From NCBI GenBank assembly GCA_965206845.1, contig OZ242221.1, forward strand, positions 1,322,679-1,354,678: DNA of 32,000 bases, given 5' to 3'. Below are positions 5,357 to 30,492 of this stretch, in pieces (the stretch's first letter is position 1; each line of letters begins with the position of its first letter). Under the pieces are notes generated by a model. That model ran no database searches. It was not told the DNA's origin and saw nothing but the letters and a program-made list of their open reading frames with translations. This DNA is from Cenarchaeum sp. GTDB taxonomy: Archaea; Thermoproteota; Nitrososphaeria; Nitrososphaerales; Nitrosopumilaceae. A program made the position numbers and the translations under genes.

Positions 5357-5726
5357 CCTTTCTCTCACCTCCTTGCGGATTGTTTTTGATGGATCGGAAG
5401 CTGCAATCACCTATCAGTGCGCGAAGCACAGGAACACAGCAGCTCGGATTGCCCCATTCAAATGAAAGTGCGCGGAGCACATGGTTATCAAGGGGTCGAT
5501 CCACTGCCACGACTACGACGAGGATGTTTTTCCAAATGAATCAAATCTACAGAACCGATTCCAGTTCATATGTGCTTGTAGGACACAGTTTGTGTTTGCA
5601 GGGCGCGCATGCGGCAGGCTTCTGCTCCATTCGGGCGCAGGTCTGCGCACCCGGTCACGCCTTCGCGCTTGGCGCTACGGCAGACGATTCCTGCGTTGCT
5701 TACGTGCCCGGACTGAAGGTTCGGGC

Positions 5727-9323: not shown

Positions 9324-11172
9324 GGGAGTTATATACAAAAGTTACCAGAACCCTTGCCTTTTTTTGGCGCTCTGGCGATCCCTCCCATGCTTGCCTCTCG
9401 CATGTTGTTCGCGGAGCGCGCGAGAGCAATCCCGCGCTGGAATCTCGCGCCTTGGGACGACGTTCCCCGCCGCTCTGCCGTCGCCTTGACGGCAATGTTG
9501 TACGCGACATTGATGTCCGCGTTGATGTCGTTCTTACACCTGTGGTTCGTGCAGTGAAACTCCCCCTGCGATATCCGGGAGTCCTTGTCCCTGCGGCTGC
9601 AGACGTGGCATGTTGTGCTGGTGCCTCTGGGGTCGACCGTTATGATCATCACGCCGGCGTTCGCGCATGCGCCCTCAATCCGCATTTGGAACGTCCTGGG
9701 ACGCGAGTACGCCATCTCTCGGTTGAGGCCGGTCTTGGCCGAGCTGCCTTTGCCTTTGGCAGTCATGTTCTTGACTTTCAGATCCTCGATGACCACCGTG
9801 CCGGCGCCCTCCGCCACCTTCTTTGACGCGTGCCTCTCCCAGTTGGTCTGCCTGTTGGCGACCTTTTCCCTCTTCTTCTGGATTCTTCTTTGGAGCTCCT
9901 TGTAGCCTCTTGACTTTGGCTTCCTTGGCCTGTCGCGCCTGGCATTCCTGTTGATGCTGCTAGCATTGTCCTGCTTGCCGTTCGCGTTGCCATCGTGGCC
10001 GCCGCCCTTGCCGTTCTGCCTGATGCGCCTGTTTCCGCTCCCGCCGCGCTTCCGCGAGAGCTCCGAGTACATCTTCGATATCTCATCACCCTTCGTCCTC
10101 CTGCAGCCGTCCGGAATGTCGTGGAACGTATGATGACCTGTATCCAAGTCGACCGTCGTTGCGCCGTGGACTATGCCCATGTCGACTCCCCTGATGACCG
10201 CATATTCTGATGGCTTGGGCGCCTTTATCCCGACCTGGATGTGGAGGCGGTACGTCCTGTGGCGGTCCTTTGTGAGTCTGGTTGTCTTCTTGGTCGTCTC
10301 CACCAGCTGGAATGAACGCATGTCAAGCCCATCCACGTCACCATGCACCTTCACGGTGCTTATGCCGGGAAGATGCAGCAGGCCGCCGCCCTTGGACACG
10401 GGACTCTGAAAACACAGAGAGCTTGCCTTCCGTCCTTCCTCCTGAGCAGGTCGCCCTTGTGGCTCCACCTATTCCTCTTGTTGCTCCACTTGTTAGGCGG
10501 CAGGTTTGCCGCAGTGCCGATGTCTGGAATTCCCTCCTTTTCCCTGTCGTGCCTGGCTAGGTTTTTCCACATTATTTTGTTGTAGCGCTTGGTGGCGTTT
10601 GACTCCATGAACCTTTTCACGGCGTCCAGCCCCTGCCGGAGGCCGGTCCTCTGCACCCTGCTGTCACAGGCCTGCCGGAGTCCGACCGCCTGAGCGTCGT
10701 CATCACGGACAAGCCATGTGTTCGCGTTCCTCCATTTGGTGAGCATGCCGTCAAGGTCAAATTTGGTTATTCTCGGGTCGCCCAGAACCTTCCGGACGGG
10801 CATGTTGTACGCCCACCTCTGCTGGTCCATGTGGCGCGATATCAGCTTTGACAGATCCCCGGACTGGTCAAAGTCCACTTTTATCGTGCGGACCATGATG
10901 CCCTTCCTTGCGCGCCTTGGCCCCTTTTTTGGCGCCGGCGCGGTTACGGTTGCCATGATGGGTTTCATTACCGCATGCAAATGTCAAATGTGTATAAAAA
11001 CACCGCGACTATACCATGCAGACCGTCCGCACCGGCATGGGCATCAATGCCATTATGCCTGCCCATGCGGTTCCCGCCGTCCAGATTGCCGCGCCGGTAT
11101 CGCGCAAAGGCAGCGCGTGAAAAGGAGCGCCAAAAAAGGCAGGGGTTTTGGTTACTTTTGTATGTAATTCCC
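9324..11172 (-). mobile_element. TnpB-only (IS1341-like, IS200/IS605 superfamily) element bounded by about 48 bp imperfect terminal inverted repeats
   Basis: 9324-9372 (GGGAGTTATATACAAAAGTTACCAGAACCCTTGCCTTTTTTTGGCGCTC) matches the reverse complement of 11125-11172 (GGGAATTACATACAAAAGTAACCAAAACCCCTGCCTTTTTTGGCGCTC). The pair brackets the tnpB reading frames exactly. The element fills the rps3ae / DUF54-like intergenic space. Confidence 0.65.
9329..10968 (-). pseudogene. tnpB: tnpB (RuvC-like RNA-guided endonuclease family) split by one frameshift near 10405-10430
   Basis: The N-terminal frame (10360-10968, MKPIMATV...MVRTIKVDF...) and the C-terminal frame (9329-10468) overlap. The C-terminal frame keeps RuvC D (GVDMGI), E (VVIEDL), D (DINADINVAYNI), and the zinc finger CHVC...CTNHRC. 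The TATA TTTTTATACA (10991-11000) lies 23 nt upstream of the ATG at 10968. The frameshift could be real decay or a sequencing or assembly error. Confidence 0.7.
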
Positions 11173-15181: not shown

Positions 15182-15449
15182 GCGGTATGTCAAATCTGAA
15201 ACGAAATTAAACGTTGCTTTATGATCCCCGGGTGTCGGTTTGCGGTTCCCGGTAACTACTTGAACGGCTCTCCTGTACTGCCAGAGCTCCCCACACGCCG
15301 CTGTGCCATGCCACGGATTCGGGCGCATCTGCAGAACCTAGGTGTAGTGCCGCTCCCTACGCCTGATCCGGCGCGGCGGGCAAATTCATGTCGACTGAAA
15401 AAATAAAGATTAAATACCTATGAGAAGATAGGGGTTTTAGGTAGATATA

Positions 15450-15779
15450 ATGACCAGTAAAATATTACTAGCAGGCATGTTGGCTGTCGTAGCCATGGGA
15501 AGCCTTGGTTTTATCGGCGTTGCCTACGCACAGTATCTGGGCAATGTGGGCGATGCGGGTGAAACAGGACAGCAGACACTGGAAGAGACTCTGGAGCTGG
15601 CACGCAGAAAGGTCGCCGCGGCAGAAGCTAATCCGGCAGCCGGTTCGGGAACCCCAATTCTTGACGCCAGTAGCATACTCGGTGCGTCAATCATATCAGG
15701 TGCAGTCTTTGGCGGCGTCGCAGGGGCCCTCTTCTTCAAATCAAAGTCCGGCAAATACGCTGCACAGGGCAGAGGCTAA
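15450..15779 (+). CDS. Small membrane or secreted protein with an N-terminal signal/anchor and a C-terminal transmembrane segment; function unknown
   Basis: 109 aa. It has the N-terminal hydrophobic MTSKILLAGMLAVVAMGSLGFIGVAYA and the C-terminal ILGASIISGAVFGGVAGALFF. It is followed by a T-rich terminator that shares CTTTTCTATTTT with the amoA terminator. Confidence 0.7.
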   Translation: MTSKILLAGMLAVVAMGSLGFIGVAYAQYLGNVGDAGETGQQTLEETLELARRKVAAAEANPAAGSGTPILDASSILGASIISGAVFGGVAGALFFKSKSGKYAAQGRG

Positions 15780-15784
15780 AAAAC

Positions 15785-15808
15785 CTCTTCTTTTCTATTT
15801 TATTTTAT
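15785..15808 (+). terminator. Oligo-T archaeal terminator
   Basis: The sequence CTCTTCTTTTCTATTTTATTTTAT begins a few nt after the stop codon. Confidence 0.5.
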
Positions 15809-15904
15809 ACCGTGACAATGTGTTGCGCGGCATGTTTTGACGTCACGCGGTTCCGAGTCATGCTGATCCCGGCACGGCTATCTGTTGTGATCCGTACCCC
15901 GAAC

Positions 15905-16918
15905 CTACCGTCCCGGCGGCAGGTCTGATGCTTGTGCATCTGCGCTTGTCCAGCGATCGAGGTTTGTGTCTTGGGGCCGGCTTGACTTTCTTGCGTTTCC
16001 GGACAGCCCGTCAATCTCCCTTATCGTCGAGTAGGATGTCTTGATGAACCACGGCCAAGGCTGCCCGGATCCCTTCCAGGCGAGGAGCCACTTTGTTGTT
16101 CTCTCATCTGCCGGGCTTCCAGAGCCTATGGACAGACCGTTGATCTGAAACTCTGCGTTGATTCCTGCCATGATTCTGCCCCGTTCCGCCTTTGCGAGTG
16201 CCGCCGCCAGCTTGGCCTCAAGGAACCTGTCGTCGGCCCTGTTTGTGACTATGACTTCTGTTCCTGCCTCCTCCAAGCCGCGAAGGTAGCTCCTCAGGCC
16301 GTCTCCTATGTTATAGTCGTCAAGAACGATGCTTGTCCTGCCCGGGGAACCCTCGTGCGTCAGATGCGATATGATCCCTTTGTATGCTTCATCCATGAGC
16401 CTGTTTATGTTGTATTTGTCTACGTCCTGCGGGGAAATCCTCTCTATGTAAAAGTCAAGTCCCCTGGATGCCAGCTGGCCGATCCGGGAGGATAGTGCAT
16501 CCCAGTACTTTGACGTGTGGCGGGACTTTGTGTCTGTTGCCCCGACCATCTTTGCGATCTCTCTGTAGAGTTCCGACGGAAAGCACACCCCACACAGCAC
16601 CTCATCGCCGGCAACCTCGCCCTTTCCGGTCTCATCGAGGCCTATCATGATCTCCCTGCCCGTCCTCTCAAACCCGGGTGTGCACAGTGCGGAGATCCTC
16701 TCCCTCAGCTCCAGCATCTGTCCGCCTGCCATCTGGTCGCTGTACAGGGTTCCGGTTTTGTACAGTGTGAAGATCGATCTGTCTATGCGCAGGCGCCAGA
16801 TCTCGGCATCTGGCTTTAAGGTGCCGTCCTCGATCGCTCCGTATGATCTGATCAGATCCTTGATCTCGTCAGCGCGCCCGTCCAGTATGGTCCACTTCTG
16901 TCCACTCTGCGGCAACAT
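15905..16918 (-). CDS. Type 2 RNase H-like protein (RNase HII/HIII fold) with an N-terminal extra domain
   Basis: It has IGLDETGKGE (compare the DEAGRG catalytic motif) and RADDRFLEAKLAAALAKAERGR (compare ADSKY..VAAASI.AK.xRD). The N-terminal FTLYKTGTLY resembles the RNase HIII substrate-binding domain. Confidence 0.6.
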   Translation of the reverse strand: MLPQSGQKWTILDGRADEIKDLIRSYGAIEDGTLKPDAEIWRLRIDRSIFTLYKTGTLYSDQMAGGQMLELRERISALCTPGFERTGREIMIGLDETGKGEVAGDEVLCGVCFPSELYREIAKMVGATDTKSRHTSKYWDALSSRIGQLASRGLDFYIERISPQDVDKYNINRLMDEAYKGIISHLTHEGSPGRTSIVLDDYNIGDGLRSYLRGLEEAGTEVIVTNRADDRFLEAKLAAALAKAERGRIMAGINAEFQINGLSIGSGSPADERTTKWLLAWKGSGQPWPWFIKTSYSTIREIDGLSGNARKSSRPQDTNLDRWTSADAQASDLPPGR

Positions 16919-17165
16919 GCTCTGGCAGAGCCAGCTCTATTTAAGCCGGGACTGCGGATGCCGGTACGGGGTTGCCTACCGCACGGGCAGGGATAAGACT
17001 CGGCCGAGCGTGCAGGCCGGCGCCTACCTGGTCCCGCCTGTGGGATCCTCCGGATGCCTCACGCCTGCCTGCATGTCCCTGTTGCATATCGGATGGCCTC
17101 GCGCATCCTGGACGAGGAGGGTTTACACTGGAGGATTTTTAAAAATAATGAAAAAGTAAAGGGTT

Positions 17166-17435
17166 TTACCAGTACTTGCCGTTGTCGGGAATTAGACCAA
17201 TCCCCTCGCGCTCGAAGTGTCTGTCAAGCTCGTCAACCCATCTCTCGCGGTTGTCCTTGTAAGACCATCCGTGGACACGCAACCAGAATGCAATGATCCC
17301 CAAGAGGAACACTGTAAACATTATGGTCCCGAAGATGTAGATCATGACGTCGAAGAACAGCGGATCGTAGTTTGGGCCCAGCTGCCCTGATATGACTGAC
17401 AGGATGTTTAGGAGTATTTCCGATATAGGAGCCAT
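17166..17435 (-). CDS. Small membrane protein (89 aa), function unknown
   Basis: It has one strong transmembrane segment (FFDVMIYIFGTIMFTVFLLGIIAFWL). The TATA TGTATATAAC (17459-17468) lies 24 nt upstream of the ATG at 17435. A T-rich terminator lies at about 17127-17160 on the minus strand. The track start at 17444 is a TTG. Confidence 0.7.
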   Translation of the reverse strand: MAPISEILLNILSVISGQLGPNYDPLFFDVMIYIFGTIMFTVFLLGIIAFWLRVHGWSYKDNRERWVDELDRHFEREGIGLIPDNGKYW

Positions 17436-17510
17436 AGTTATCAAAAAAGGGTATGTATGTTATATACATTTCCTTGATCCGGGCCGCACGGCGCCATACT
17501 TACTCCTTGC

Positions 17511-17660
17511 TCAGGCACGAAAACATGCACTCGGAAATTCGCACTTCTGGCACGTGCAGCAGGTGACCTTGTACATTCTGGTGAATTCCTCTGTCTGGAA
17601 GCCGTACCACACGCACGGATCGCTGGTCTTCGTACGTAGCGGTTGCCACCGTTCGGGCAT
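17511..17660 (-). CDS. Possible 49 aa cysteine-rich small protein
   Basis: My own translation gives MPERWQPLRTKTSDPCVWYGFQTEEFTRMYKVTCCTCQKCEFPSACFRA. It is below the ORF-track size cutoff. By hand count about two thirds of third codon positions are G/C. No obvious TATA lies upstream. Confidence 0.3.
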   Translation of the reverse strand: MPERWQPLRTKTSDPCVWYGFQTEEFTRMYKVTCCTCQKCEFPSACFRA

Positions 17661-17821
17661 GCGCGTCTCAGATGTTCCCTGCTCCCGGTCTGGTGGGTAG
17701 CGGGCTGGCCGTGGGGCTCACGCGGCAGTCCCTGCCAGCCGGCCTGGGCGATCCAGGCAGGGCTGTGAGGCCAGCCGCCCCAACAGAAAGGGCTTTAAGG
17801 AATTTGGTGGCACACTAGAGT

Positions 17822-18346
17822 ATGTTCTGGCCCGGAATGGGGGATCCCACAAAACGAAGAAAGACCTTAAAGTTTCTGCTGATGACTGCCGTAATCGCAA
17901 TATCCGTGGGGGCTGCCAGCAGCCTGATCCAGGGCCAGATCTTCAAGGACGATCCCCTCAAGGTGTGCATTAACGACAGGGATACGCCGTACAAGATCTC
18001 TGCGGTTCTGGAGCTCTACGTTGATGGTCAGCGGGCGGTCATTCCTGCAAATGTTGGAGCCGGAGAGAACGAGTGCCAGCGTTCCTTGTATACCACGACA
18101 GATGACGGGACCATATATGCCGAGTGGGAGAACCGGTACCCGTTTGAGATAGGTCACTTTCTCTGGATGTGGGAGTTTCCGCTAAGGGACATGGACGAGA
18201 CCAAGTCTAGAGTTCTGCTGAACGGGGAGGAGTCGCCCCAGTTCATCAACACGCCACTGATCGATGGGGCAACGTACCGGGCCGAGTTCACTACAAAGGC
18301 ACACGACGAGACAAAGGACACGGACTTTCTGCCTCCAGAATCCTGA
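17822..18346 (+). CDS. Membrane-anchored extracytoplasmic protein, conserved hypothetical
   Basis: 174 aa with the N-terminal anchor LKFLLMTAVIAISVGAASSL. The TATA-like CTTTAAGG lies about 24 nt upstream of the ATG. Confidence 0.75.
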   Translation: MFWPGMGDPTKRRKTLKFLLMTAVIAISVGAASSLIQGQIFKDDPLKVCINDRDTPYKISAVLELYVDGQRAVIPANVGAGENECQRSLYTTTDDGTIYAEWENRYPFEIGHFLWMWEFPLRDMDETKSRVLLNGEESPQFINTPLIDGATYRAEFTTKAHDETKDTDFLPPES

Positions 18347-18435
18347 TCCCGGCATGTCCTACAGGCACCTCCATCACCGTGATCAGAATACCTGCGTGTG
18401 CCTACATCCGGAGGCTACCTGAAAAAACCACCGGC

Positions 18436-18750
18436 TCAGTCGTCCATGATCTCAATGGTGTCGAACTGATCCTGCCTGTCTGCCAGAAAGTACGTGATCT
18501 CATCCGAATCTATCTCTACCCACTCAGACTCGCCGCGGTACGGCAGGAGATCCTCCACGAATATGTCTCCGGGGCCTGTCAGCCTGACTATTGCCCTCGG
18601 CCTTGCGAGGATCATGCCAGGGGGCAGCTTGAGCACCTTGCCTCTTCTCTGGTTCTGGATGTTGATCGAGTACACCTCGTCTCCCAGCTGGATCTTTCCA
18701 AAGAAGTAGCTCTGGAAGATATCGATCCTGTTTATCTTGAAACTGATCAT
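18436..18750 (-). CDS. Hypothetical cytoplasmic protein (104 aa)
   Basis: By hand count, the minus-strand frame has about three quarters G/C at third codon positions. The overlapping plus-strand ORF 18379-18771 looks like an R/L-rich antisense shadow. Confidence 0.65.
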   Translation of the reverse strand: MISFKINRIDIFQSYFFGKIQLGDEVYSINIQNQRRGKVLKLPPGMILARPRAIVRLTGPGDIFVEDLLPYRGESEWVEIDSDEITYFLADRQDQFDTIEIMDD

Positions 18751-18810
18751 GCCTGTACTGTGTCGTACTGAGAAAAAACATTGATGGGTATGGTGTCCAA
18801 TGGACGACTT

Positions 18811-18834
18811 TAAGATAAAAGGAAAAGGTTTGGG
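18811..18834 (-). terminator. T-rich terminator of amoB, sharing a motif with the amoA terminator
   Basis: After the stop, the minus strand reads CCTCCCAAACCTTTTCCTTTTATCTTA. After the amoA stop the sequence is ATCCCCAACCTTTTCCTTTTCTATTTT. Confidence 0.5.
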
Positions 18835-18837
18835 AGG

Positions 18838-19407
18838 TTAGATTACTTGCCAGGGTCGTGTTGCGAACGTGATAACGTAGCCCACACCAATCAGAATTGA
18901 CTGATACATGATGTTGGTATACGGAATCTCCTTGAGGATGTATTCGCCTGTTACGACTACTGTCTGTCCTGGACCAAGTCCTGGACCTACTGTCGCGACG
19001 TTAAGCTGTGTGTGCACGTGGTATACTCCTGGCTCTAAGGCCATTGCGCAAACTCTGTATGGTACGATGCTGTTTCCGTCGATGTCAAATACGTTTCCTG
19101 GCGGATCTCTCTCCTGAATCTCCCATCTGTTACCTGCGTTGGTTGACTCTGAGAATATGGATGTCCATCCTCTCAGATCCCTCTCTACTAGGCTGTTCAG
19201 ATTGCCAGTTATGCAGAGCGTTTCACCGGTCTGCATAGATCCGCTGTTGAATGACTCATCTTCGATTCTGATGAAGCGACTCTGGAGTTGTGCCTGGACA
19301 CCGTGCGCCTCTGCCGATGGTAAGATGGTTTCAACCCAGTTGAAGCCAACTGTACCTAGGGTCAGTATTACGCCCAGTCCCAATACGATTAGTTTTTTAT
19401 TGATCAT
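18838..19407 (-). CDS. amoB: Ammonia monooxygenase subunit B (archaeal type)
   Basis: It has a signal peptide followed by AHGVQAQLQSRF. Other matches are RDLRGWTSIFSESTNAGNRWE, EPGVYHVHTQLNVATVGPGLGPGQ, and the C-terminal TFATRPWQVI. The ATG at 19407 lies 27 nt downstream of the TATA at 19434-19443. The track start at 19416 is a GTG. Confidence 0.93.
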   Translation of the reverse strand: MINKKLIVLGLGVILTLGTVGFNWVETILPSAEAHGVQAQLQSRFIRIEDESFNSGSMQTGETLCITGNLNSLVERDLRGWTSIFSESTNAGNRWEIQERDPPGNVFDIDGNSIVPYRVCAMALEPGVYHVHTQLNVATVGPGLGPGQTVVVTGEYILKEIPYTNIMYQSILIGVGYVITFATRPWQVI

Positions 19408-19433
19408 AGTTCCCACTTCTTAACAAACTGTGT

Positions 19434-19443
19434 GGATATAGAA
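19434..19443 (-). promoter_or_regulatory. amoB TATA box
   Basis: The minus strand reads TTCTATATCC, 27 nt upstream of the ATG at 19407. Confidence 0.5.
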
Positions 19444-19481
19444 CGTTATATGTTTTACCTTGATATCGGTAGATTTTGTAG

Positions 19482-19945
19482 TATGGGACGGATACTGGCG
19501 GGTACATCCTTCCCCACGCCGCATGATGCCCCTCCATTGTCTGCAGATCTGCAGCAGCTCCGCCACTTGGGCCGTACCTTGGACACAAGCGCCTGGCAGG
19601 CACCCGCACACCCTCCCGGTATGGCGACATGCGCGCTCCCGCAGTTGTACCGCCACGTGAGCAGATCTGCGAGATCGCTTCTGCGCATCAGCACCGTCTC
19701 GGACCCTAGCAGTACACACTGAATCCTTCTGTGTGGCCTCTGTTCTGCTGCTGGCTTGGGAATGTCTCGCGCATGCCGGAGTCCGGTGAACTCTCGACTC
19801 GATCGGCCACCCCTCAAGTTCTAATGCCTGCTCTTCCTTGCTTCTGACGTGCTGGTGCAGATCTGTGAACCGTGGTTGGTCGTCACTGAAGCCAGCCTCT
19901 TGTGGTTCTTATGGACTCTTCAGGATCCGATGTCTGTTTGTTGTC
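19482..19945 (-). pseudogene. Decayed 3' fragment of an IS481-like element related to the copy at 21117-22250
   Basis: DNA and peptide similarity to the intact copy:
- Terminus: TATGGGA... versus TGTGGGA...
- Shared CACGCCGCATGAT at 19515-19527 and 21145-21157
- Peptide LMRRSDLADLLTWRYNCGSAH versus LMRKSDPIDLFMQWYNHDRPH
- Peptide MSPYREGVRVPARRLCPRYGPSGGAAADLQTMEGHHAA versus MSLNRDERETPAQAFVRKMPPKGEAVIDEQTGEEYHAA
- DNA GACCAACCACGGTTCACAGATCTGCACC versus GACCGACCACGGCTCCCAGTTCTATGCC
Several frameshifts and stops are present. Confidence 0.75.
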
Positions 19946-20082
19946 GATGTTTAACAGCGGACAGAACGAAGTTTGTGTTGTAATTCCTTTGCCAATATAC
20001 GGGTATTTTTGTAAATTGTGGCATGTGTTATTGCGCATCTTGTAATAACATGGCACCAGATCTCATCCGTGGCTGACACCTG

Positions 20083-20092
20083 CTTTATATTC
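20083..20092 (+). promoter_or_regulatory. amoC TATA box
   Basis: CTTTATATTC lies 22 nt upstream of the ATG at 20114. Confidence 0.5.
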
Positions 20093-20113
20093 GAACCGCG
20101 GCGTACATATCAC

Positions 20114-20677
20114 ATGGCACAAATGCCCGCTCTAATCCCAAAAGAGGTCGAGATCCAGAGACTCAAGAAGATCTGGCTCATCGTCATCGCAATGGGATCA
20201 ACTGCAGCGTCGGTCGAGGTAGACAACTTTGTCGACGGTTCCCTGCACCAGACATCCATAAGAGACAGCGCGTTTACTCCTGCACACTGGTGGCTATACT
20301 CCCACTTTGTAGCACTGCCACTGGGCTGGGGCTCGGTCGCAATCTACGATAGAAGGGTGCCAGTACTCAGAGGCCCGAACAACTCGATGAACACGGGACT
20401 GAAGATGACCATCCTTGGTTATCTTGCGACCATGTTCACCATAGGCATCAATGAGATGTGGCACTTTTGGTTCGTGGAAGAGATCTTCGCGGTACCAAAC
20501 CACTGGATGTTCAACATGGGTGTAGTCGTGGCCTTTATGGGCGCACTCGCGTACGTCGTAAGGGTGTATGCGAGACTGGTCGAACTTGGCGCAGAGACAC
20601 CCGGTGAGAACCCGTACGTTGCAGAGATGTACAAGATGGCCCTTGAAGGCAAGCTGTACAGCCGCGCAATACCCTAA
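20114..20677 (+). CDS. amoC: Ammonia monooxygenase subunit C (archaeal type)
   Basis: It starts MAQMPALIPKEVEIQRLKK and is archaeal AmoC over its full length (VDNFVDGSLHQTSIRDSAFTP, NHWMFNMGVVVAFMGALAYVVRVYARLVELG). The track ORF starts 32 codons earlier at a GTG, which is unlikely. Confidence 0.93.
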   Translation: MAQMPALIPKEVEIQRLKKIWLIVIAMGSTAASVEVDNFVDGSLHQTSIRDSAFTPAHWWLYSHFVALPLGWGSVAIYDRRVPVLRGPNNSMNTGLKMTILGYLATMFTIGINEMWHFWFVEEIFAVPNHWMFNMGVVVAFMGALAYVVRVYARLVELGAETPGENPYVAEMYKMALEGKLYSRAIP

Positions 20678-20688
20678 ATGCGTAAGCA

Positions 20689-20705
20689 TTTTCTTTTATT
20701 TTTTC
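20689..20705 (+). terminator. Oligo-T terminator after amoC
   Basis: TTTTCTTTTATTTTTTC lies 12 nt after the stop codon. Confidence 0.45.
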
Positions 20706-21116
20706 ATGCAATGCCACGCGTACTGCGGCACGATCTCAGATCTTCTCCTGCCTAGATGCGGGTTTGCTTCGAGAGGCATAGGCTCAGGAGTGGATCACTT
20801 GCATCCTCCGGCAGTAGCGTGGTGGCAGTAACCGAACCCCAAATTCGCTCTGCTAGGCAGTGACTGGCATGCCAGGACTGGAAAAAGCAGTCGGCGCGTA
20901 GTGGATAGAACGCAGGGATCGAATCCAGATGGCCTTACTGGGGCAGCAGTGGCCGGGAGCACGACCTGCTGTCCCGGAACCGGCAGGCACAGGAACCAGA
21001 CTGCGTGGCCATGTCAGTATGGGATCAAATCCTACTCCATTCAGACACAAAAGCACATCTCGGAAGAATCTTTACGCCTGGCCAGTGCAACACGAGGTCT
21101 CGTGCCCATACGACTA

Positions 21117-22250
21117 TGTGGGATCCAGAAAGTAGTTCCCCCCTCACGCCGCATGATACTCCTCCCCCGTCTGCTCGTCAATAACGGCCTCTCCCTTTGG
21201 AGGCATCTTGCGCACAAACGCCTGGGCTGGCGTCTCCCGCTCGTCCCTGTTCAGTGACATGTGCGGCCTGTCATGATTGTACCACTGCATGAACAGATCT
21301 ATGGGATCGCTCTTGCGCATCAGCATTGCCTCAAACTCGGGCAGCTTGCGCCGGATCTTCCCGTACAGCCTCTCCAGCTTGCCGTTGGTCTGCGGGTGCT
21401 TGACGCGCGCCAGAATCTGGTGGATTCCCAGCCCGACCAGCCTCTTCTCGAAATCAGACGCCCCCTTCCTCTTTGCCTCTGACGCGTTGGCATAGAACTG
21501 GGAGCCGTGGTCGGTCATTATCGAAGCCGGCTTGCCGTGGTTCTTTATGGCCTCCTCCAGCACGGCCAGCGCGTTCTCCGTAGTGGCATGCTCAAGCGCC
21601 CCGTACCCGGTGACAAACCGCGAGGCGTCGTCCCCGTAGCACAGGAACCACCTGCCGTCGTCTGACAGCTTGAAGTCCGTGTGCCACATGGAGTTGGAGT
21701 AGGTGCGCTCGTAGCGGATCCACTTCCGTCTCTGGCTCTTCTTTGGCTGCCTGGATGCCAGATGCTCGTCCCTCAATATCTTGTGGTGGTGCTGTGGGGG
21801 ATATTTATTCCGGTGCTGTCCCTTATGCCGTCCTGCATGCCTGCAGCCCCCAGGTGCTCCCTGTAGCGGACAGAGAGCACTGCAGAGTGCTCCCGGCGGC
21901 CCGGGAGGCCGTTCTCGGGCCTGCCCATGCGTGCAGGATGGAGTATCTTGCCGGCATCCGCGTGCTTGTACCGGACCCAGAGCTTCTTGACCCAGCGCGT
22001 GGATACGTCCATGGTCTGGGCAACGTGGTTGGCGGTGGCCCCCTTTCGCTTCTGGGCTATGATCCACCTGACCTTGGATTCATCTAGTTTTTTCATTACA
22101 CGAACCCTTCGGCCGCCTATGTGTCTCCACAGCCTGGCGCATTCTGGCCGGATCCGAGCGCCTTCATTCCCGGTAAGGGAAACGCTCGCACTGTCTTTCA
22201 GACGTTTTGCTCCTTCCGACAGGGGGTGAACTACTTTTCGGACTACAGAC
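21117..22250 (-). mobile_element. IS481-like insertion sequence (about 1.13 kb) flanked by a 13 bp direct repeat
   Basis: The direct repeat GCCCATACGACTA occurs at 21104-21116 and 22251-22263. The imperfect terminal inverted repeats are TGTGGGATCCAGAAAGTAGTTCCCCCC (21117-21143) and the reverse complement of 22222-22247, TGTAGTCCGAAAAGTAGTTCACCCCC. Both begin with TGT. The element encloses an rve-type transposase. Confidence 0.8.
21144..22096 (-). pseudogene. HTH + rve (DDE integrase-core) transposase, IS481-like, interrupted by one frameshift near 21781-21795
   Basis: The N-terminal frame (21773-22096, MKKLDESKVRWIIAQKRKGATANHVAQTMDVSTRWVKK...) joins the C-terminal frame, which carries WHTDF, MTDHGSQF, and TNGKLERLYGKI. 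The frames switch inside CACAGCACCACCACAAG (..GINIPHST / HKILRDE..). Confidence 0.75.
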
Positions 22251-22301
22251 GCCCATACGACTAAGAAAGACTTAAAAGGATTCTGGATATTACAAATTCA
22301 A

Positions 22302-22664
22302 ATGACTCTTCCAAAAGGATTTGGCTCAGGTGGCGCTGGCGGAGCTGGACAAGCAGATGTAGAAAAGATGATCGGCAAGCGTGTCGAAAACATGACTGGT
22401 CTGATCACCATCTCATACATTGCAGCTTGGCTGGCTACCTTTGGCGGTACCGCAGCAGGATACTTCTACTATCCGTGGGCATACCCCACACCAAGCGGTC
22501 ACTATGCCTTCATTGTCCTAACAATAATTGAGGCGATTGGCTATCTGTTCTGCGTTAAAGTAATGCAGGAAGGATCCAACAAGAACAGTAATGGTGTTAT
22601 AGCGGTAACCCTCGCAGCAACTGCGGTGGGTACCGTGCTTATCTCACTGTTCGTAGGAAACTAG
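22302..22664 (+). CDS. amoX: AmoX, the small membrane protein encoded between amoC and amoA in AOA
   Basis: 120 aa with multiple hydrophobic segments. It occupies the conserved position immediately upstream of amoA, as in Nitrosopumilales amo clusters. Confidence 0.8.
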   Translation: MTLPKGFGSGGAGGAGQADVEKMIGKRVENMTGLITISYIAAWLATFGGTAAGYFYYPWAYPTPSGHYAFIVLTIIEAIGYLFCVKVMQEGSNKNSNGVIAVTLAATAVGTVLISLFVGN

Positions 22665-22674
22665 AGGGCTCAAT

Positions 22675-22694
22675 CTTCTGTTTTTCTCTTTTTC
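22675..22694 (+). terminator. Oligo-T terminator after amoX
   Basis: CTTCTGTTTTTCTCTTTTTC lies about 10 nt after the stop codon. Confidence 0.45.
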
Positions 22695-22706
22695 GTGTCA
22701 CAAGCT

Positions 22707-22934
22707 AGCTTCAGTAATCCCAGATGTGCCAGATCTAGCACCTGTGAGAGTTTAGATCACCTCCATCATGCCCATGAAGAGTTCAATTTGGCATGGGTCA
22801 AACCCTCGTATTCTGTCGTATGCGTCGTCATTTGTGTCTAAACCTACATGAAATGGCCAAAAATATCTGAGTGGGACCAGCCCCTCACTCAGTCAAATGG
22901 TGGCGACTTAACCTCTTACTGGCACATCTGGGAT
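22707..22934. repeat. MITE-like 228 bp element with near-perfect 25/26 bp terminal inverted repeats in the amoX-amoA spacer
   Basis: 22712-22732 (CAGTAATCCCAGATGTGCCAG) is the exact reverse complement of 22910-22930. AGCT extends both arms, with a 1 nt indel. An internal 9 bp hairpin is CTGAGTGGG...CCTCACTCAG. No coding capacity is evident. Confidence 0.6.
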
Positions 22935-23103
22935 TACTGAGCTTACATGCTGGGCTTGCTGTGGCCAGAACCGTGCTCCGGCCTGTTCTAGGACGTCTCT
23001 GCCCGGCAGAAGACTACCGATCTGGGGTATGGCGACCCTGCCGTATGGCAACACCTGATGCGCCGAGTCAGGCGTGGATTCCCATGCGACTCTCGCGCAG
23101 GCG

Positions 23104-23119
23104 TATAAAATTTTATATA
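23104..23119 (+). promoter_or_regulatory. amoA TATA box region
   Basis: TATAAAATTTTATATA ends 23 nt upstream of the ATG at 23142, consistent with a leaderless or very short-leader transcript. Confidence 0.55.
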
Positions 23120-23141
23120 CCAACCGTTCAGTCTACTAGTA

Positions 23142-23792
23142 ATGGTCTGGCTAAGACGTTGTACACACTACTTGTTCATAATAGTAGTTGCAGTAAACTC
23201 TACTCTGTTGACGATTAACGCAGGTGACTACATCTTCTACACTGACTGGGCATGGACTTCGTTTGTAATATTCTCTATATCGCAGACGTTGATGCTCGCT
23301 GTTGGTGCTACATACTACCTCACATTCACAGGCGTTCCAGGAACAGCTACGTACTACGCTCTGATAATGACGGTATACACGTGGATCGCAAAGGGTGCAT
23401 GGTTTGCACTGGGTTATCCATACGACTTTATCGTCACTCCAGTTTGGCTGCCATCGGCAATGCTGTTGGATTTGGCTTACTGGGCTACGAAGAGAAACAA
23501 ACACTCGCTGATCCTGTTTGGCGGGGTACTGGTAGGAATGTCATTGCCCCTGTTCAACATGGTAAACCTACTGACAGTTGCAGACCCACTAGAAACGGCG
23601 TTCAAATACCCGAGGCCAACACTGCCTCCGTACATGACCCCGATAGAACCCCAGGTGGGTAAGTTCTATAACAGCCCAGTAGCGTTGGGCGCGGGAGCTG
23701 GCGCAGTGTTGTCGGTGACGTTTACGGCGTTGGGTTGTAAGCTAACTACGTGGACGTATAGATGGATGGCCGCATGGTCAAAGTGGGACTAA
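23142..23792 (+). CDS. amoA: Ammonia monooxygenase subunit A (archaeal type)
   Basis: 216 aa. MVWLRRCTHYLFIIVVAVNSTLLTINAGDYIFYTDWAWTSF...RWMAAWSKWD is unmistakably archaeal (group I.1a-like) AmoA. Confidence 0.97.
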   Translation: MVWLRRCTHYLFIIVVAVNSTLLTINAGDYIFYTDWAWTSFVIFSISQTLMLAVGATYYLTFTGVPGTATYYALIMTVYTWIAKGAWFALGYPYDFIVTPVWLPSAMLLDLAYWATKRNKHSLILFGGVLVGMSLPLFNMVNLLTVADPLETAFKYPRPTLPPYMTPIEPQVGKFYNSPVALGAGAGAVLSVTFTALGCKLTTWTYRWMAAWSKWD

Positions 23793-23796
23793 ATCC

Positions 23797-23820
23797 CCAA
23801 CCTTTTCCTTTTCTATTTTG
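23797..23820 (+). terminator. T-rich terminator after amoA
   Basis: CCAACCTTTTCCTTTTCTATTTTG starts 5 nt after the stop codon. Confidence 0.5.
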
Positions 23821-23997
23821 TATCGTCTGAGGCTGTGCCTTGATGCAGCTTTTTGTTTGGATCCGTTCCCGCGCATGACTGCCCCGGGCGTATGATCCGG
23901 CCTGGACATCCCAGTTACCCCTAATCCAAAAAAAGTCAGTTTGGGATCAAGTTTTTTTTACATCCGGGATCATAACAAACTCTGACACTACTCTACA

Positions 23998-24852
23998 TTG
24001 ACGCAGCAGGTAGGGCAGCTGGATTCCCCAAAGCCGTTCGTAAAGTGGGCCGGCGGGAAGAGGCAACTGATCTCCGTAATCAACGCAAACATACCGCTCT
24101 CCTTTGGTACGTACTTTGAGCCCTTTCTGGGCGGCGGGGCGGTTCTGTTTCACCTGCTGTCCGCCAGGCAGTCTGTCGCTTGTCGAGTCTCGGATCTCAA
24201 CCCGGATCTGGTGCTGGCGTACGTGGCCATCCGGGACAGAGTGAATGCAGTAGTCTCTTCACTCAAGCGCCATGCAAAAGGGTACATGTCGGATCCGCGC
24301 GCGTACTATTACGGCGTGCGCAGCTCCGTGCCTGATGGCGGAGTCGAGAAGGCATCCCGCCTCATCTTCCTCAACCGCACCTGCTTTAACGGCCTGTACC
24401 GAGTAAACAGCCGTGGCATGTTCAACGTTCCGCTGGGAAAGTACGTAAACCCCAACATTGTAAACGAGGAGAACCTCCGTGCGGTGAGCAGATCCCTGCA
24501 GTCAGAGAGGGTGCAGATCTCCTGCGGGGACTTTGAGATTGCATGCAGCTCCATGCGACGTGGCGACTTTGTCTACTTTGACCCTCCATACCAGCCAGTC
24601 AGCAGGACTGCCAGCTTTACCGGCTACACCCGCCAAGACTTTGGCGCAACAGATCTCAAGCGCCTAGTCGATCTCTGTCATGCCTTGGACTCCCGGGGAT
24701 GCCACGTACTACTGTCAAACTCCAACTTGCAGGAGATTGCAGATCACTTTGACGGGGACTGGGAGGTGACAACAGTCAGCGCCAACCGTTGCATCAACTC
24801 ATCTGGAGCAGGGAGAGCCGGGCATACCGAGCTCATGATAAGAAACTATTGA
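23998..24852 (+). CDS. Dam-family (D12 class) N6-adenine DNA methyltransferase
   Basis: Motifs are FVKWAGGKRQL, EPFLGGGAV (SAM binding), and FDPPY (catalytic). It apparently uses a TTG start at 23998, with no in-frame ATG before KWAGGK. Its stop codon directly abuts the 3' end of tRNA-Thr. Confidence 0.85.
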   Translation: MTQQVGQLDSPKPFVKWAGGKRQLISVINANIPLSFGTYFEPFLGGGAVLFHLLSARQSVACRVSDLNPDLVLAYVAIRDRVNAVVSSLKRHAKGYMSDPRAYYYGVRSSVPDGGVEKASRLIFLNRTCFNGLYRVNSRGMFNVPLGKYVNPNIVNEENLRAVSRSLQSERVQISCGDFEIACSSMRRGDFVYFDPPYQPVSRTASFTGYTRQDFGATDLKRLVDLCHALDSRGCHVLLSNSNLQEIADHFDGDWEVTTVSANRCINSSGAGRAGHTELMIRNY

Positions 24853-25031: not shown

Positions 25032-26018
25032 CTAGAGGTGCATCCTGACCCTTTCAAGCAGTATGACGGGAATCATTGCAATTATCCCAATCATCATGAT
25101 ATGCGAAAACTCCGGTACTACCGCGATGCCGCCAAAGCAGGCAGCCTCGTCCTCCAGATTGCCGTTTAGGAACATTGAGCACCCTGCGCCGTCTGTCTGG
25201 ATGATGATGTCCCCGGTATGTGTCCTAAGAAGATGGTCCGCGCCGGCATACCTGTTGACTGCATCTTGGTGCGGATGTCCGTACTGGTTGTTCTCGTTTG
25301 CCGAGAATATTACGGTTCTTGGCGTGGTGGCATCTACGAATGCCGGCGTGCTTGCATGCTTTGAGCCATGGTGCGGCGCGTTGAGAATGTCCACATCTAG
25401 GACGTCTGCGGCATATCTGTTGACAAGCCACGACTCTGTGGTAAAGGTGGCGTCGGCCGTAAACAGGAACTCAATGTCGCCATACTCCAAGAGCATGATC
25501 ACGGAATTTGAGTTTTCGAGCGACGCGTTTCGCCTTTCACTGATCAGTGATTCTGGCGGACTGAGAACCCTGACAGATACCGAATCATCAAGATTTATGG
25601 TGTCGCCCGTATGTGCGATGGACCTGCCTTCTGCCAGGCTAAGGAATCTTTGATATGTCCGGGTCTCCTTCTCCGTGGGGCCTGTTATGATCCCCTTTAC
25701 CTCGATCGATCCGTCCTGCAACAAAGCGTTGAGTCCCCCTATGTGATCCTGATCCGGATGTGTTGCAACAACTGCGTCTATTGTGCTGATGTCAAATGAC
25801 TGTAACACCTCCTTGATATTCGGGTATGCTGATGATAGCCCGCCATCAATGAGCATGGTCTTCTCGTTTGGGAAGATGACAAGTGTCGAGTCACCCTTTG
25901 TCTCAAGATCAATGAACACAACCGTCAGCCCATCAAAGTCGTATGCGTCATGGTCTGCATATGCAAACGGGGCGGATGCCGCCGGCAATAACAACAACAG
26001 AATGTACGTTACCTTCAC
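25032..26018 (-). CDS. Secreted metallo-beta-lactamase-fold hydrolase (ComEC/Rec2-type MBL domain) with a C-terminal PEF-type membrane anchor
   Basis: It uses a GTG start and has the signal peptide MKVTYILLLLLPAASAPFAYA. MBL motifs are ATHPDQDHIGG and APHHGSKH. The C-terminus is VVPEFSHIMMIGIIAMIPVILLERVR (motif + TM + basic tail). Confidence 0.8.
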   Translation of the reverse strand: MKVTYILLLLLPAASAPFAYADHDAYDFDGLTVVFIDLETKGDSTLVIFPNEKTMLIDGGLSSAYPNIKEVLQSFDISTIDAVVATHPDQDHIGGLNALLQDGSIEVKGIITGPTEKETRTYQRFLSLAEGRSIAHTGDTINLDDSVSVRVLSPPESLISERRNASLENSNSVIMLLEYGDIEFLFTADATFTTESWLVNRYAADVLDVDILNAPHHGSKHASTPAFVDATTPRTVIFSANENNQYGHPHQDAVNRYAGADHLLRTHTGDIIIQTDGAGCSMFLNGNLEDEAACFGGIAVVPEFSHIMMIGIIAMIPVILLERVRMHL

Positions 26019-26178
26019 TCAGTCAAACCAAGCCGCGAGCGGTATTTGAACATGCTTGCACCGGCGATATCTGCTTCCCGTGGCGGAGTGCAACGAGATG
26101 GAAGCGAATGAGTGGCCAAGCTTGCGGCGCATTAAAAAGAGTAGAGAGCTCTGCTGTATGACACCTGCGTAGATTCAG

Positions 26179-26486: not shown

Positions 26487-27041
26487 ATGGTTCTGCTCGA
26501 GTCTGCAAAGATGCTAAAGAAGGGGGATGTCGCCCCGAACTTTGATCTGTTTGGAACCGATGGCAGAAGACACTCCGCTGACAGCTATGGGGACTATGAG
26601 GGACTGCTGGTGATCTTCATGTGCAACCACTGCCCGTATGTCAAGGCCAAACTGGGCGCCATCAAGGAGATACACAGCAGGTTCAGGGATCGCGTAGCGA
26701 TTGTAGGCATCAACAGCAACGACTCGACTCGATACCCCGACGACAGCTTTGAGAACATGAAGGCCGTGGCCAAGGAGAAGGGCCTGGAGTTTGACTACCT
26801 GGCAGATGAGACTCAGGAGGTGGCAAGAGAATACGGTGCTGCATGCACGCCGGACCCATTCCTCTTTGACAGGAAGCGGCGGCTTGTATTTCACGGCAGG
26901 CTTGATGACGCGCTCAAGCTCGATGACACGGCCACGGAGAAGACCACGATGAACAACATAGAAAAGATGCTGGCAGGGCAGGAGATAGAGAAGGACTTTG
27001 ATCCATCCATCGGATGCTCGATCAAGTGGAAGCAGAATTAG
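26487..27041 (+). CDS. Thioredoxin-fold redoxin (AhpC/TSA-like thiol-disulfide oxidoreductase)
   Basis: 184 aa with the CxxC motif CNHCPY inside a redoxin-like fold pattern (GDVAPNFDL...LLVIFMCNHCPYV). The TATA AATTTATTTG lies about 20 nt upstream of the ATG at 26487. Confidence 0.8.
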   Translation: MVLLESAKMLKKGDVAPNFDLFGTDGRRHSADSYGDYEGLLVIFMCNHCPYVKAKLGAIKEIHSRFRDRVAIVGINSNDSTRYPDDSFENMKAVAKEKGLEFDYLADETQEVAREYGAACTPDPFLFDRKRRLVFHGRLDDALKLDDTATEKTTMNNIEKMLAGQEIEKDFDPSIGCSIKWKQN

Positions 27042-29265: not shown

Positions 29266-30492
29266 CGGCTGCCGGGGGTTGGTGCGTAATTCTCCGAACC
29301 GCCTAGACCAGTCCGATACGTTCAATGATCCGCGATCTCCCGCACGCGGCAATGAGCGAACACAACAGACGGGAAGGATACTGGCAGTACTATGAACTGG
29401 CAAAGGAAGTCGAGGCACCTAGTCTGAAGAGGACGCTGATCGAGATAATCCGGGAGAACCCTTGCCCGCGCCGAGAAAACGGCAACAGGGGCCGTCCCCC
29501 GGTTCACTCCAAGGAGAAACTGGACTTTGCCTGTCTGCTGATGATGGCAGGCAACAACACCTATCGCGGAGTCGAATCGGACCTGCGAGGCATGCGGACA
29601 CCATGGGACAACGAGCCCGTCCCGGACCATACCACACTGGTCAGGCACCTCCAGACGATACCGGCAGACTGGCTCGATCTGATCGTGGCCGAGACGGCCC
29701 GCCGTTGCATCAAGGAGGCGGACGAGGCGACGGGCCCGCTGGGAGCCGACAGCAGCGCGGCGGAGACCACTAGGTACGAATACGTCGAGAGGCCAAGCAG
29801 GAAGGAGCGCGACTTCGTCGAGACACGCCAAAAGACCTACTGGAAATACCACATAACGGCCATCTTGGGCCTGCAGATCGTGCTGGCGGCGTTCACCACG
29901 CCCAGCAACATCAACGACACGACCATGCTTCCAGTCATGCTGGCTGAGATCAGGCGTCGCGGGTTTGACTTTGCGGGGAACTTCTTTGACGGGGACAAGG
30001 GGTACGACTCTGACTACAACTGCGAGCTGCTGTTCTGGATGGGCATGATCCCCAACATCAAGCAACGGAAGGATGCCGTCAACCGTGGCAAGTCGCACAG
30101 GAGGAAGGCAGCTGGCATGTTCAGCGATAGCGAGTACAGAAAGAGGGCCCTGATAGAGGGCATCTTCGGGGCCGAGGAGACCCGGCGGCACCAGCTGCAC
30201 TGCCGGTTCGTCCGGAAGGACAACCGGCGCCTGTTCGCCAAGGGAAGGGCGATCGCCTGGAACATCCGGGTCCTCAACCGGTTCGAGTGCGCCAACCGGC
30301 TAAACATACCAATACCCTCCTACGGTGGCATGGCGCACGTGGAGTGCGCCTGATGATCCGACCCGTCAGTAGCTGATCACGGCGTGCGGGCAACAAAAGC
30401 CCGACACGCACCAAAGCACCGCCGGTGAAGATGCGGTGGGAGACACACATGAGCAGGACGGAGCAGAATTACGCACCAACCCCCGGCTGCCG
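29266..30492 (+). mobile_element. IS5-family insertion sequence (about 1.23 kb) with 28 bp terminal inverted repeats (1 mismatch)
   Basis: 29266-29293 is CGGCTGCCGGGGGTTGGTGCGTAATTCT. The reverse complement of 30465-30492 is CGGCAGCCGGGGGTTGGTGCGTAATTCT. The pair encloses a DDE transposase. I found no clear target duplication. Confidence 0.8.
29325..30353 (+). CDS. IS5/IS4-type DDE transposase (DDE_Tnp_1)
   Basis: 342 aa. GADSSAAET, FDGDKGYDS, and RALIEGIFG match the D, D, E regions typical of IS5-family transposases. The 292 aa antisense ORF at 29322-30200 is a shadow. Confidence 0.88.
   Translation: MIRDLPHAAMSEHNRREGYWQYYELAKEVEAPSLKRTLIEIIRENPCPRRENGNRGRPPVHSKEKLDFACLLMMAGNNTYRGVESDLRGMRTPWDNEPVPDHTTLVRHLQTIPADWLDLIVAETARRCIKEADEATGPLGADSSAAETTRYEYVERPSRKERDFVETRQKTYWKYHITAILGLQIVLAAFTTPSNINDTTMLPVMLAEIRRRGFDFAGNFFDGDKGYDSDYNCELLFWMGMIPNIKQRKDAVNRGKSHRRKAAGMFSDSEYRKRALIEGIFGAEETRRHQLHCRFVRKDNRRLFAKGRAIAWNIRVLNRFECANRLNIPIPSYGGMAHVECA

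Follow-up and report, generated by a model that had tools for sequence, protein, structure and literature searches.

In an archaeon assigned to Cenarchaeum sp. (Nitrosopumilaceae), the ammonia monooxygenase (AMO) gene cluster carries mobile-element DNA in each of its three intergenic spacers. The cluster lies in a stretch of 32,000 nucleotides with a G+C content of ~55% (GenBank assembly GCA_965206845.1, contig OZ242221.1, positions 1,322,679 to 1,354,678 of the forward strand), which is referred to here as the window and to whose first letter all positions relate. The spacer between amoB and amoC (B-C) harbours a relic of an IS481-like insertion sequence (IS), that between amoC and amoX (C-X) a full IS481-like copy, and that between amoX and amoA (X-A) a miniature inverted-repeat transposable element (MITE), confirming an earlier note (made from the sequence alone) that had proposed mobile-element-derived DNA in all three. 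Very probably, this is a canonical amo cluster whose spacers have been enlarged by successive transpositions, tolerated since each gene forms an ancestral single-gene transcription unit.

The order of the genes, established from the listing of open reading frames (ORFs), Pfam matches and synteny, is amoB(-) / amoC(+) amoX(+) amoA(+). It had been described as the Nitrosopumilales-type order and is borne out by Pfam for AmoA, AmoB and AmoC and by syntenic homologues for AmoX; the same order is found in 58 collinear species. All four genes are intact. The amoB gene (18838-19407, minus strand; Pfam Monooxygenase_B) encodes 189 aa from the ATG at 19407, with the GTG at 19416 as an alternative start, and is 67-84% identical to the syntenic AmoB of other species, while amoC (20114-20677, plus strand; Pfam AmoC, E 2.6e-14) shares 90-99% identity with its relatives. 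The 120-aa product of amoX (22302-22664, plus strand) was identified by synteny and by 72-91% identical syntenic homologues in most other Nitrosopumilaceae loci examined; AmoX is regarded as a subunit of AMO (PMC10030591). The amoA gene (23142-23792, plus strand) encodes 216 aa and matches Pfam Archaeal_AmoA with an E value of 9e-118.

Comparison with other species reveals the extent of the expansion. A genome scan with AmoA yielded 80 loci, of which the 58 with collinear order were used for spacer lengths. In these other Nitrosopumilaceae species, the B-C spacer measures 247-280 bp (median 258), and the medians for the C-X and X-A spacers are 113 and 107 bp, as against 706, 1624 and 477 bp in the window. 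Apart from promoter blocks, no sequence shared between the spacers of the window and those of other species was detected by blastn or tblastx. Thus, the comparison with relatives that had been put forward as a check finds all three spacers expanded, the orthologous ones being much shorter and unrelated in sequence. Expanded spacers also occur at loci L011, L037 and L068, in which no recognisable transposase ORFs were found, and the loci L050, L073 and L077 are rearranged. For comparison at the strain level, the exact AmoA protein was found on 19 contigs from several samples and ten loci were retrieved, which are >99% identical to the window yet differ by insertions.

The B-C spacer contains a decayed, 5'-truncated IS481-like relic at 19487-19921 (minus strand), comprising one terminal end and the C-terminal ~130 transposase codons. 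Its segment 19502-19921 is collinear with, and in the same orientation as, positions 21132-21557 of the IS copy in the C-X spacer (65% identity; blastn E 9e-44), and its translation matches transposase residues 175-307 (tblastn E 7e-8) as well as 87 IS481-like homologues at ~32% amino-acid identity. The decayed fragment noted earlier at 19482-19945 is hence supported by both blastn and tblastn, with the extent given above. The relic is present in all strains examined (B-C spacer of 705-706 bp) and absent from the 58 other species; subtracting it leaves ~262 bp, which is the canonical size of this spacer.

The IS481-like element of the C-X spacer occupies 21117-22250 on the minus strand (1133-1134 bp, with one end at ~22249-22250) and encodes a frameshifted transposase with Pfam rve and rve_3 matches. 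It is bracketed by two copies of the 13-bp direct repeat GCCCATACGACTA, a perfect target-site duplication (left copy at 21104-21116, flush with the IS end; right copy at 22251-22263, 1 nt off the other end; both given on the plus strand). The right copy extends 2 nt into the amoX promoter block from its 5' side, and therefore the native sequence adjoining the promoter is preserved. The terminal repeats TGTGGGATCCAGAAAGTAGTTC and TCTGTAGTCCGAAAAGTAGTTC are imperfect and inverted, with 85% complementarity between the arms (21124-21143 and 22223-22242) and with TGTGGG... and TCTGTAG... at the ends. The transposase is split into an N-terminal fragment of 107 aa (21773-22096, minus strand), presumed to bind DNA, and a catalytic (rve) fragment of 210 aa (21144-21776, minus strand; Pfam rve and rve_3). 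Intact homologues are single ORFs of 317 aa (P0001 being 92% identical), and the split corresponds to a 1-nt deletion at ~21785/21786 relative to the copy at locus L091. The amo-locus copy is thus pseudogenised, because this deletion divides its transposase. Accordingly, of the "nearly intact" IS481-like copy with a target duplication described previously, the element and its 13-bp duplication stand, whereas the transposase ORF is broken. An exact look-up of the 107-aa ORF returned the amo-locus copy only, and the length of the catalytic-fragment ORF varies by strain (210, 203, 181, 141+66 and 139+160 aa), even as the element itself is common to all strains examined.

Assignment to the IS481 family rests on several features. 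Members of this family generate target duplications of 4-15 bp, and elements of the IS3 family use a programmed orfA/orfB frameshift. The window element falls within the ~1-1.3 kb length range of the family at ~1.1 kb, carries imperfect terminal inverted repeats starting with TGT or T.TG and a long 13-bp target duplication, and its intact relatives possess a single DDE (rve) ORF with no IS3-like programmed frameshift. The best NCBIfam hidden Markov model match is transpos_IS481 (NF033577), which aligns over positions 2-284 of 284 (E 5e-51) with a score of 174 bits, below the equivalog cutoff of 224 bits; the next matches, ISNCY and IS3, score 82 and 67 bits. Besides this sub-threshold score, the element departs from the family model in that the copy is frameshifted and belongs to an archaeal subgroup. 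The closest uninterrupted relative is the L091 copy (5852-6981; 317-aa ORF), which is 95.9% identical, lies at an unrelated site beside acetyl-CoA/propionyl-CoA carboxylase genes (carbon fixation) and has the same ends within a few bases; the boundaries of the element are therefore fixed independently. Such a copy at another locus shows past mobility of this IS481-like family. L091 comes from a related assembly of 6x coverage, and its copy has no visible target duplication.

In the X-A spacer, a MITE of 228 bp extends over 22712-22939 (22707-22944 including the 5-bp target duplication AGCTT on each side). Its ends are perfect inverted repeats of 21-22 nt (0 expected by chance), it folds into a long hairpin (z = -7.6), and the sole tested ORF overlapping it (22871-23218) has no Pfam match; the element is thus small, non-coding and bounded by terminal inverted repeats. 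The earlier description of a MITE-like element at 22707-22934 was right as to its nature and misplaced it by 5 nt, the actual element lying further right. The site is exactly empty in L006, L008, L009 and L010 (...CAAGCTAGCTTACATGC..., reading CAAGCT-AGCTT-ACATGC), and the filled allele carries AGCTT on both sides. A second copy, 94% identical and with the target duplication CAATC, resides in L002; the window lacks an element at the corresponding site (25088-25092), so that at both sites the filled and empty alleles differ by the element and one duplicated copy of the target. The MITE is therefore genuine and recently mobile, because exact empty sites exist and a second copy has a different target duplication. 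Its terminal repeat had no other match in 90 loci, and a metagenome scan for the MITE end turned up 45 matches, one per contig and in line with chance, along with only one partial MITE match of 26 nt. The Sulfolobus SM elements are an archaeal example of MITEs. The present element resembles archaeal and bacterial MITEs in being small, non-coding, hairpin-forming, multicopy and polymorphic for presence and absence, with perfect inverted ends and a short target duplication, and differs from them in that no autonomous partner IS with matching ends was found in the 90 loci or the metagenome scan.

Promoter comparison places all three insertions outside the predicted transcription units. The 70 nt 5' of each amo gene were aligned across Nitrosopumilaceae species, and a conserved promoter with a B recognition element (BRE) and TATA box was found for each of the four amo genes of the window. 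The amoB core promoter block, GGTAAAACATATAACG (19444-19459, minus strand), lies at -52 to -37, is followed by a GGGA(T) leader and is conserved across Nitrosopumilaceae loci. For amoC, the TATA box TTTATATT spans 20084-20091 (plus strand; -30 to -23), within an upstream region in which the block CTTTATAT is kept across species. The amoX core promoter block, TAAGAAAGACTTAAAAGGATTCT (22262-22284, plus strand), is nearly invariant across the aligned loci and includes the TATA-like CTTAAAAG at 22271-22278 (-31 to -24), and that of amoA, TATAAAATTTTATATAC (23104-23120, plus strand), has its TATA box at 23112-23119 (-30 to -23) and corresponds to CTAAAATTTTATATAC, which is nearly invariant across the aligned loci. 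The claim that a TATA box precedes each start by 22-27 nt hence holds for amoA, amoX and amoC (-31/-30 to -24/-23) and fails for amoB, with its conserved box at -52 to -37. These promoters are not new to the literature: individual TATA/BRE promoters for archaeal amo genes were concluded by Bartossek et al. (2012; PMC3379541), who also described an amoC ATG located 24 nt downstream of its TATA box, the GGGAT motif in the amoB leader and the amoA promoter block (PMC3379541).

T-rich tracts, considered as putative terminators, were found 3' of all four genes, in keeping with the proposal that each gene has its own. They are located at 18812-18835 for amoB (minus strand, reading CCTTTTCCTTTTATCTT; inverted repeat I4), 20684-20704 for amoC, 22672-22692 for amoX and 23799-23819 for amoA (all three on the plus strand and in repeat family D1; that of amoA is also part of I4), and the tract after amoB is 88% complementary to that after amoA. 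Near-identical T-rich motifs occur just 3' of amoB (18812-18835) and amoA (23794-23817), namely CCCAAACCTTTTCCTTTTATCTT and CCCAACCTTTTCCTTTTCTATTTT, and comparable tracts are found 3' of amoC, of amoX and of a gene whose end is near 15781; these may represent a shared terminator motif. Each insertion sits between such a T-tract and the core promoter of the next gene. The positions of T-tracts and core promoters thus agree with the view that the insertions fall between transcription units and not inside them, although separate transcription is itself deduced from sequence. With every element confined to the interval from a putative terminator to the following core promoter, none of the coding sequences, core promoters or operons is interrupted.

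The sequence of events can be envisaged as follows. An old IS481-like element that had inserted between the divergent promoters of amoB and amoC would have decayed to the truncated, 65%-identical relic. A younger IS481-like insertion would then have landed right upstream of the amoX promoter, generating the 13-bp duplication, with a later 1-nt deletion disabling its transposase. The recent, still polymorphic 228-bp MITE would have entered downstream of the amoX terminator and upstream of the amoA promoter. Each amo gene has a short BRE/TATA promoter, no farther than ~40-55 nt from the start codon, as well as its own putative T-tract terminator, and the target-site duplication would restore the original bases beside the promoter. 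Once in place, an element would act as neutral DNA that gathers nested elements, as in other strains, and selection would purge insertions in genes or core promoters, so that those in spacers remain visible. On this account, transcription would be independent and functional, and the pattern would reflect tolerance under selection and not targeting. The earlier note had suggested that the insertions may explain why the amo genes behave as separate units. This is contradicted by the presence of the same BRE/TATA blocks in genomes with unexpanded spacers, as already published (PMC3379541); the causality probably runs the opposite way, the insertions being tolerable because the per-gene promoters are ancestral.

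The related strains add further insertions to this picture. A 1656-bp IS110 element is nested in the MITE at 22891/22892 in L003, L005 and L007, and the same element occurs in these strains at 26021/26022, with the identical target CACTCAG|TCAAA at both sites. IS110 elements are expected to target specific sequences, and the repeated target clearly points to sequence-specific targeting. At 22256-22265, an IS4-like element with the ends GGCTGTGTCC and the target duplication TACGACTAAG is present in L008, L009 and L010, and the same junction in L003 holds a different DDE_Tnp_1 IS, 85% identical to the copy at 29275-30483 of the window; this L003 junction is unresolved, part of the IS481 end being duplicated there. 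In L008, the IS481 copy has additionally received a 136-bp MITE, other IS elements form a nest of several kb, and 23092-23100 is the site of a 91-bp element. The 136-bp MITE represents a second family (ends GAGACATGATCCGCAATTAAG ... CTAATTACGAATCACATCTC) observed at four sites, which correspond to 15269-15275 (L005, L007), 21184-21186 (L008), 26052-26054 (L002) and 27033-27036 (L007) of the window; it has been recently active, because the four sites differ and are occupied in different strains. Sequence divergence among nine strains differs between genes and elements: amoA shows 0 differences per kb, amoC 0 (eight strains), amoB 2.4 and amoX 4.9, as compared with 12.3 for the IS481 copy and 9.4 for the relic-bearing B-C spacer. 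This diversity fits conserved, presumably functional amo genes accompanied by decaying elements. Identity of the AmoA protein is given by construction, because the loci were retrieved via an exact AmoA match; the amoA gene is also identical in nucleotide sequence in the nine strains.

How unusual such an insertion load is has to be judged against the rest of the genome. Beyond the amo locus, the window contains an IS110-family transposase gene (4277-5410, minus strand; DEDD_Tnp_IS110 and Transposase_20), a TnpB/OrfB_IS605 (Cas12f-like) gene (9329-10468, minus strand) and the DDE_Tnp_1 IS at 29275-30483 (29266-30492 with its duplications), which has a 342-aa ORF, the terminal repeats GGGGGTTGGTGCGTAATTCT and the 9-bp target duplication CGGCTGCCG, and which is absent in L001 and L006. 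Some 10 polymorphic insertions were counted in 14 kb of flanks (~0.7/kb), against 6-8 in the 5-kb locus (~1.2-1.6/kb), an enrichment of 2-3 fold that nested insertions explain in part; the locus, 15% of the window, holds three of its six elements (binomial P ~0.05). The locus is only a modest hotspot, because the whole genome is IS-rich. The claim that the invasion of a central energy-metabolism locus is unusual is therefore weakened, as the genome is IS-rich throughout and the flanks of the locus also carry ~0.7 insertions/kb.

The same counts bear on the possibility that the elements prefer the promoters of the highly transcribed amo genes (for example, through open or AT-rich DNA), for which there is some case, albeit on balance an improbable one. 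Three unrelated elements (IS481-like, IS4-like and DDE_Tnp_1) lie within 15 bp (22251-22265) upstream of the amoX block, the 91-bp element of L008 sits ~5-10 bp upstream of the amoA block, polymorphic insertions are denser in the locus than in its flanks, and IS110 uses one specific target twice. Nevertheless, the enrichment is small, was ascertained post hoc and comes with a binomial P of ~0.05; the flanks are heavily hit too; nested insertions are expected, since earlier elements enlarge the neutral target; and the IS110 target lies in the MITE and not in amo DNA.

Less likely still is adaptive rewiring, in which the insertions were retained for uncoupling upstream control or adding outward promoters, thereby altering AMO expression or stoichiometry in a host. 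In the relatives (L011-L090), a GATC precedes the TATA box at a fixed distance, being found upstream of amoA in 67 of 78 cases (-51 to -54), of amoX in 60 of 76 (-61 to -63) and of amoB in 54 of 63 (-61 to -65), with only 9 of 64 for amoC. In the window lineage, GATC is missing from the 100 nt preceding amoA, amoX and amoB and comes no closer than -123 of amoA (23019-23022). In addition, whatever DNA once lay upstream of the amoX promoter is now cut off from it by the IS481 copy, and the earlier note's idea of an effect on subunit stoichiometry would be compatible with such a change. On the other hand, the MITE, IS110 and IS4-like insertions are polymorphic among near-identical strains, as would be expected if they were neutral or slightly deleterious; the gene for the transposase is in decay; and a GATC does survive at -123 of amoA, the function of the motif being putative. 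A more far-reaching version can also be framed, to which we give little credence: the amo promoters would be preferred landing sites for transposons, the insertions would have cut off a conserved GATC control element (possibly linked to the Dam-like methyltransferase encoded beside amoA in almost all relatives examined), leaving AMO constitutive or in altered ratios, and the locus would be an intermediate in a transposon-driven break-up of the Cenarchaeum type.

A composite transposon remnant, whereby the relic and the IS481-like copy once mobilised amoC in the manner of the IS-flanked amoAB on the soil fosmid 19c08, is very unlikely. Two IS481-like sequences do flank amoC in direct orientation, and IS-flanked amo genes have been proposed before (PMC3379541); amoC nevertheless occupies its canonical position behind a canonical promoter, what is left of the B-C spacer has the canonical length (262 bp), the two copies share just 65% identity and the relic has no outer end. 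The full IS481 copy is a separate simple insertion, because it has its own 13-bp target duplication. No near-identical pair of functional IS elements with a duplication outside the unit was found, and this duplication, along with the conserved synteny, largely refutes the idea.

Misplacement of the elements by the assembler (a chimera or a collapsed repeat) can be dismissed as virtually without probability: IS elements often cause misassemblies, and the L003 junction is an instance that would be in line with this, but the same architecture recurs at >99% identity in 9-10 independent assemblies from different samples, and precise target duplications with exact empty sites are signatures of real transposition. 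The assemblies include contigs of 0.3-2.5 Mb with coverage up to 1162x, whose names and lengths suggest long reads, as well as short SPAdes-style contigs. The refuting condition set in the earlier note, insertions exposed as chimeras by long-read data, is accordingly not borne out.

To return to successive, tolerated transpositions into a canonical cluster, several points weigh against this explanation or limit it. Recognised elements do not account for all of the extra DNA: after their subtraction, the C-X spacer still measures 477 bp and the X-A spacer 244-245 bp, as against medians of 113 and 107 bp elsewhere, so that ~360 bp and ~140 bp, respectively, are not tied to any mobile element. 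The former belongs to ~400 bp of lineage-specific spacer DNA at 20705-21103 and the latter lies at 22945-23095. Neither segment has a repeat copy in the window or the 90 loci, or a blastn or tblastx homologue in relatives. When 20678-21116 and 22940-23141 were compared with the window, the 90 loci and, via tblastx, the relatives with expanded spacers, only orthologous positions and promoter blocks were matched; the unassigned DNA has no match to IS481-like proteins, and an Rfam scan of 18000-24500 at E<=1 returned none. Folding of 20705-21103 is not unusual (z-scores of -0.4 and 0.0), and 22945-23095 likewise shows no unusual folding and no RNA-family match. T-arm-like strings in 20705-21103 (GGGATCGAATCC and GGGATCAAATCC) were considered as tRNA remnants and set aside, as neither Rfam nor ARAGORN supports them; the sole ARAGORN finds, tRNA-Thr and tRNA-Ala, are both outside the amo locus. 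The segment 20705-21103 is, moreover, oddly conserved among strains, with 2.3 differences per kb.

Further reservations of this kind concern history and expression. The state before the IS481 insertion is reconstructed and unobserved, because no IS481-empty allele was found among the strains, and the reconstructed allele CTCGTGCCCATACGACTAAGAAAG had 0 matches in the metagenome scan; alignment of the left flank of the IS with the upstream region of amoX in relatives is unconvincing, the stretch from GATC to promoter being too variable. Gene conversion from other IS copies could partly underlie the diversity of the IS481 copy. The missing upstream GATC means that amo regulation may not be unaffected, and independent, undisturbed expression of the amo genes is something we infer.

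The wider neighbourhood has been remodelled as well. The extended amo region at 15450-18750 is rearranged relative to the canonical S15(-) Z109(+) Y89(+) o174(-) o104(-) amoB(-): the genes for an 89-aa membrane protein (17169-17435; likened to AmoY on grounds of synteny and size) and a 174-aa protein (17822-18346) are inverted, and the AmoZ-like (15450-15776) and AmoY-like genes are separated by an RNase HII gene (15905-16918). On the other side, 3' of amoA, almost every locus examined has a D12-class N6-adenine methyltransferase gene as a conserved neighbour (23998-24852 in the window). In the Cenarchaeum sp. loci L051, L065 and L076, o174 adjoins amoX, and o104, amoB and amoC are gone from the cluster; L076 also has an rve-type IS between amoX and amoA. 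L050, L073 and L077 have inversions of amoB-amoC or of larger blocks. Taken together, these loci suggest that in some lineages the amo cluster is being broken up step by step.

Transposition around amo genes has precedents. C. symbiosum is a noted exception to amo synteny (PMC10030591), and sponge-associated ammonia-oxidising archaea (AOA), such as Cenarchaeum symbiosum and Ca. Nitrosospongia ianthellae, among others, are rich in transposases (PMC6790972, PMC7848895). The present genome resembles these in that it belongs to the Nitrosopumilaceae, is high in G+C and is rich in ISs of many families, and the population is probably host-associated, to judge from its G+C content, IS load and contig naming. 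Genome-wide counts are given in the sponge studies (PMC6790972, PMC7848895), whereas here the insertions are mapped inside the amo cluster; Ca. N. ianthellae itself retains the canonical amoA-amoX-amoC-amoB order. On the soil-group fosmid 19c08, IS elements adjoin the amo genes, and transposition was proposed to shape amo gene order (PMC3379541). The window shares with this fosmid the transposases beside amo genes, individual TATA/BRE elements ~23-24 nt before the ATG and the GGGAT leader of amoB. Fosmid 19c08, however, is of the Nitrososphaera lineage, and its amoAB is bracketed by identical IS copies that may form a composite transposon, while the window is of the Nitrosopumilaceae and has simple insertions in three spacers, an intact gene order and filled and empty strain alleles. 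The locus is, therefore, a well-documented instance of a known phenomenon, with no new element type or mechanism.

Its value lies in the natural insertion experiment that it offers, with near-identical strains carrying no insertion, the MITE, the MITE with IS110, an IS4-like element or multi-kb IS nests between amoC, amoX and amoA. Such a set of strains is suited to asking whether the amo genes are independent leaderless units and whether DNA beyond the BRE/TATA core matters. Furthermore, it would capture, at base-pair resolution, an early step in the IS-driven erosion of amo synteny in an IS-rich and probably host-associated lineage of AOA.

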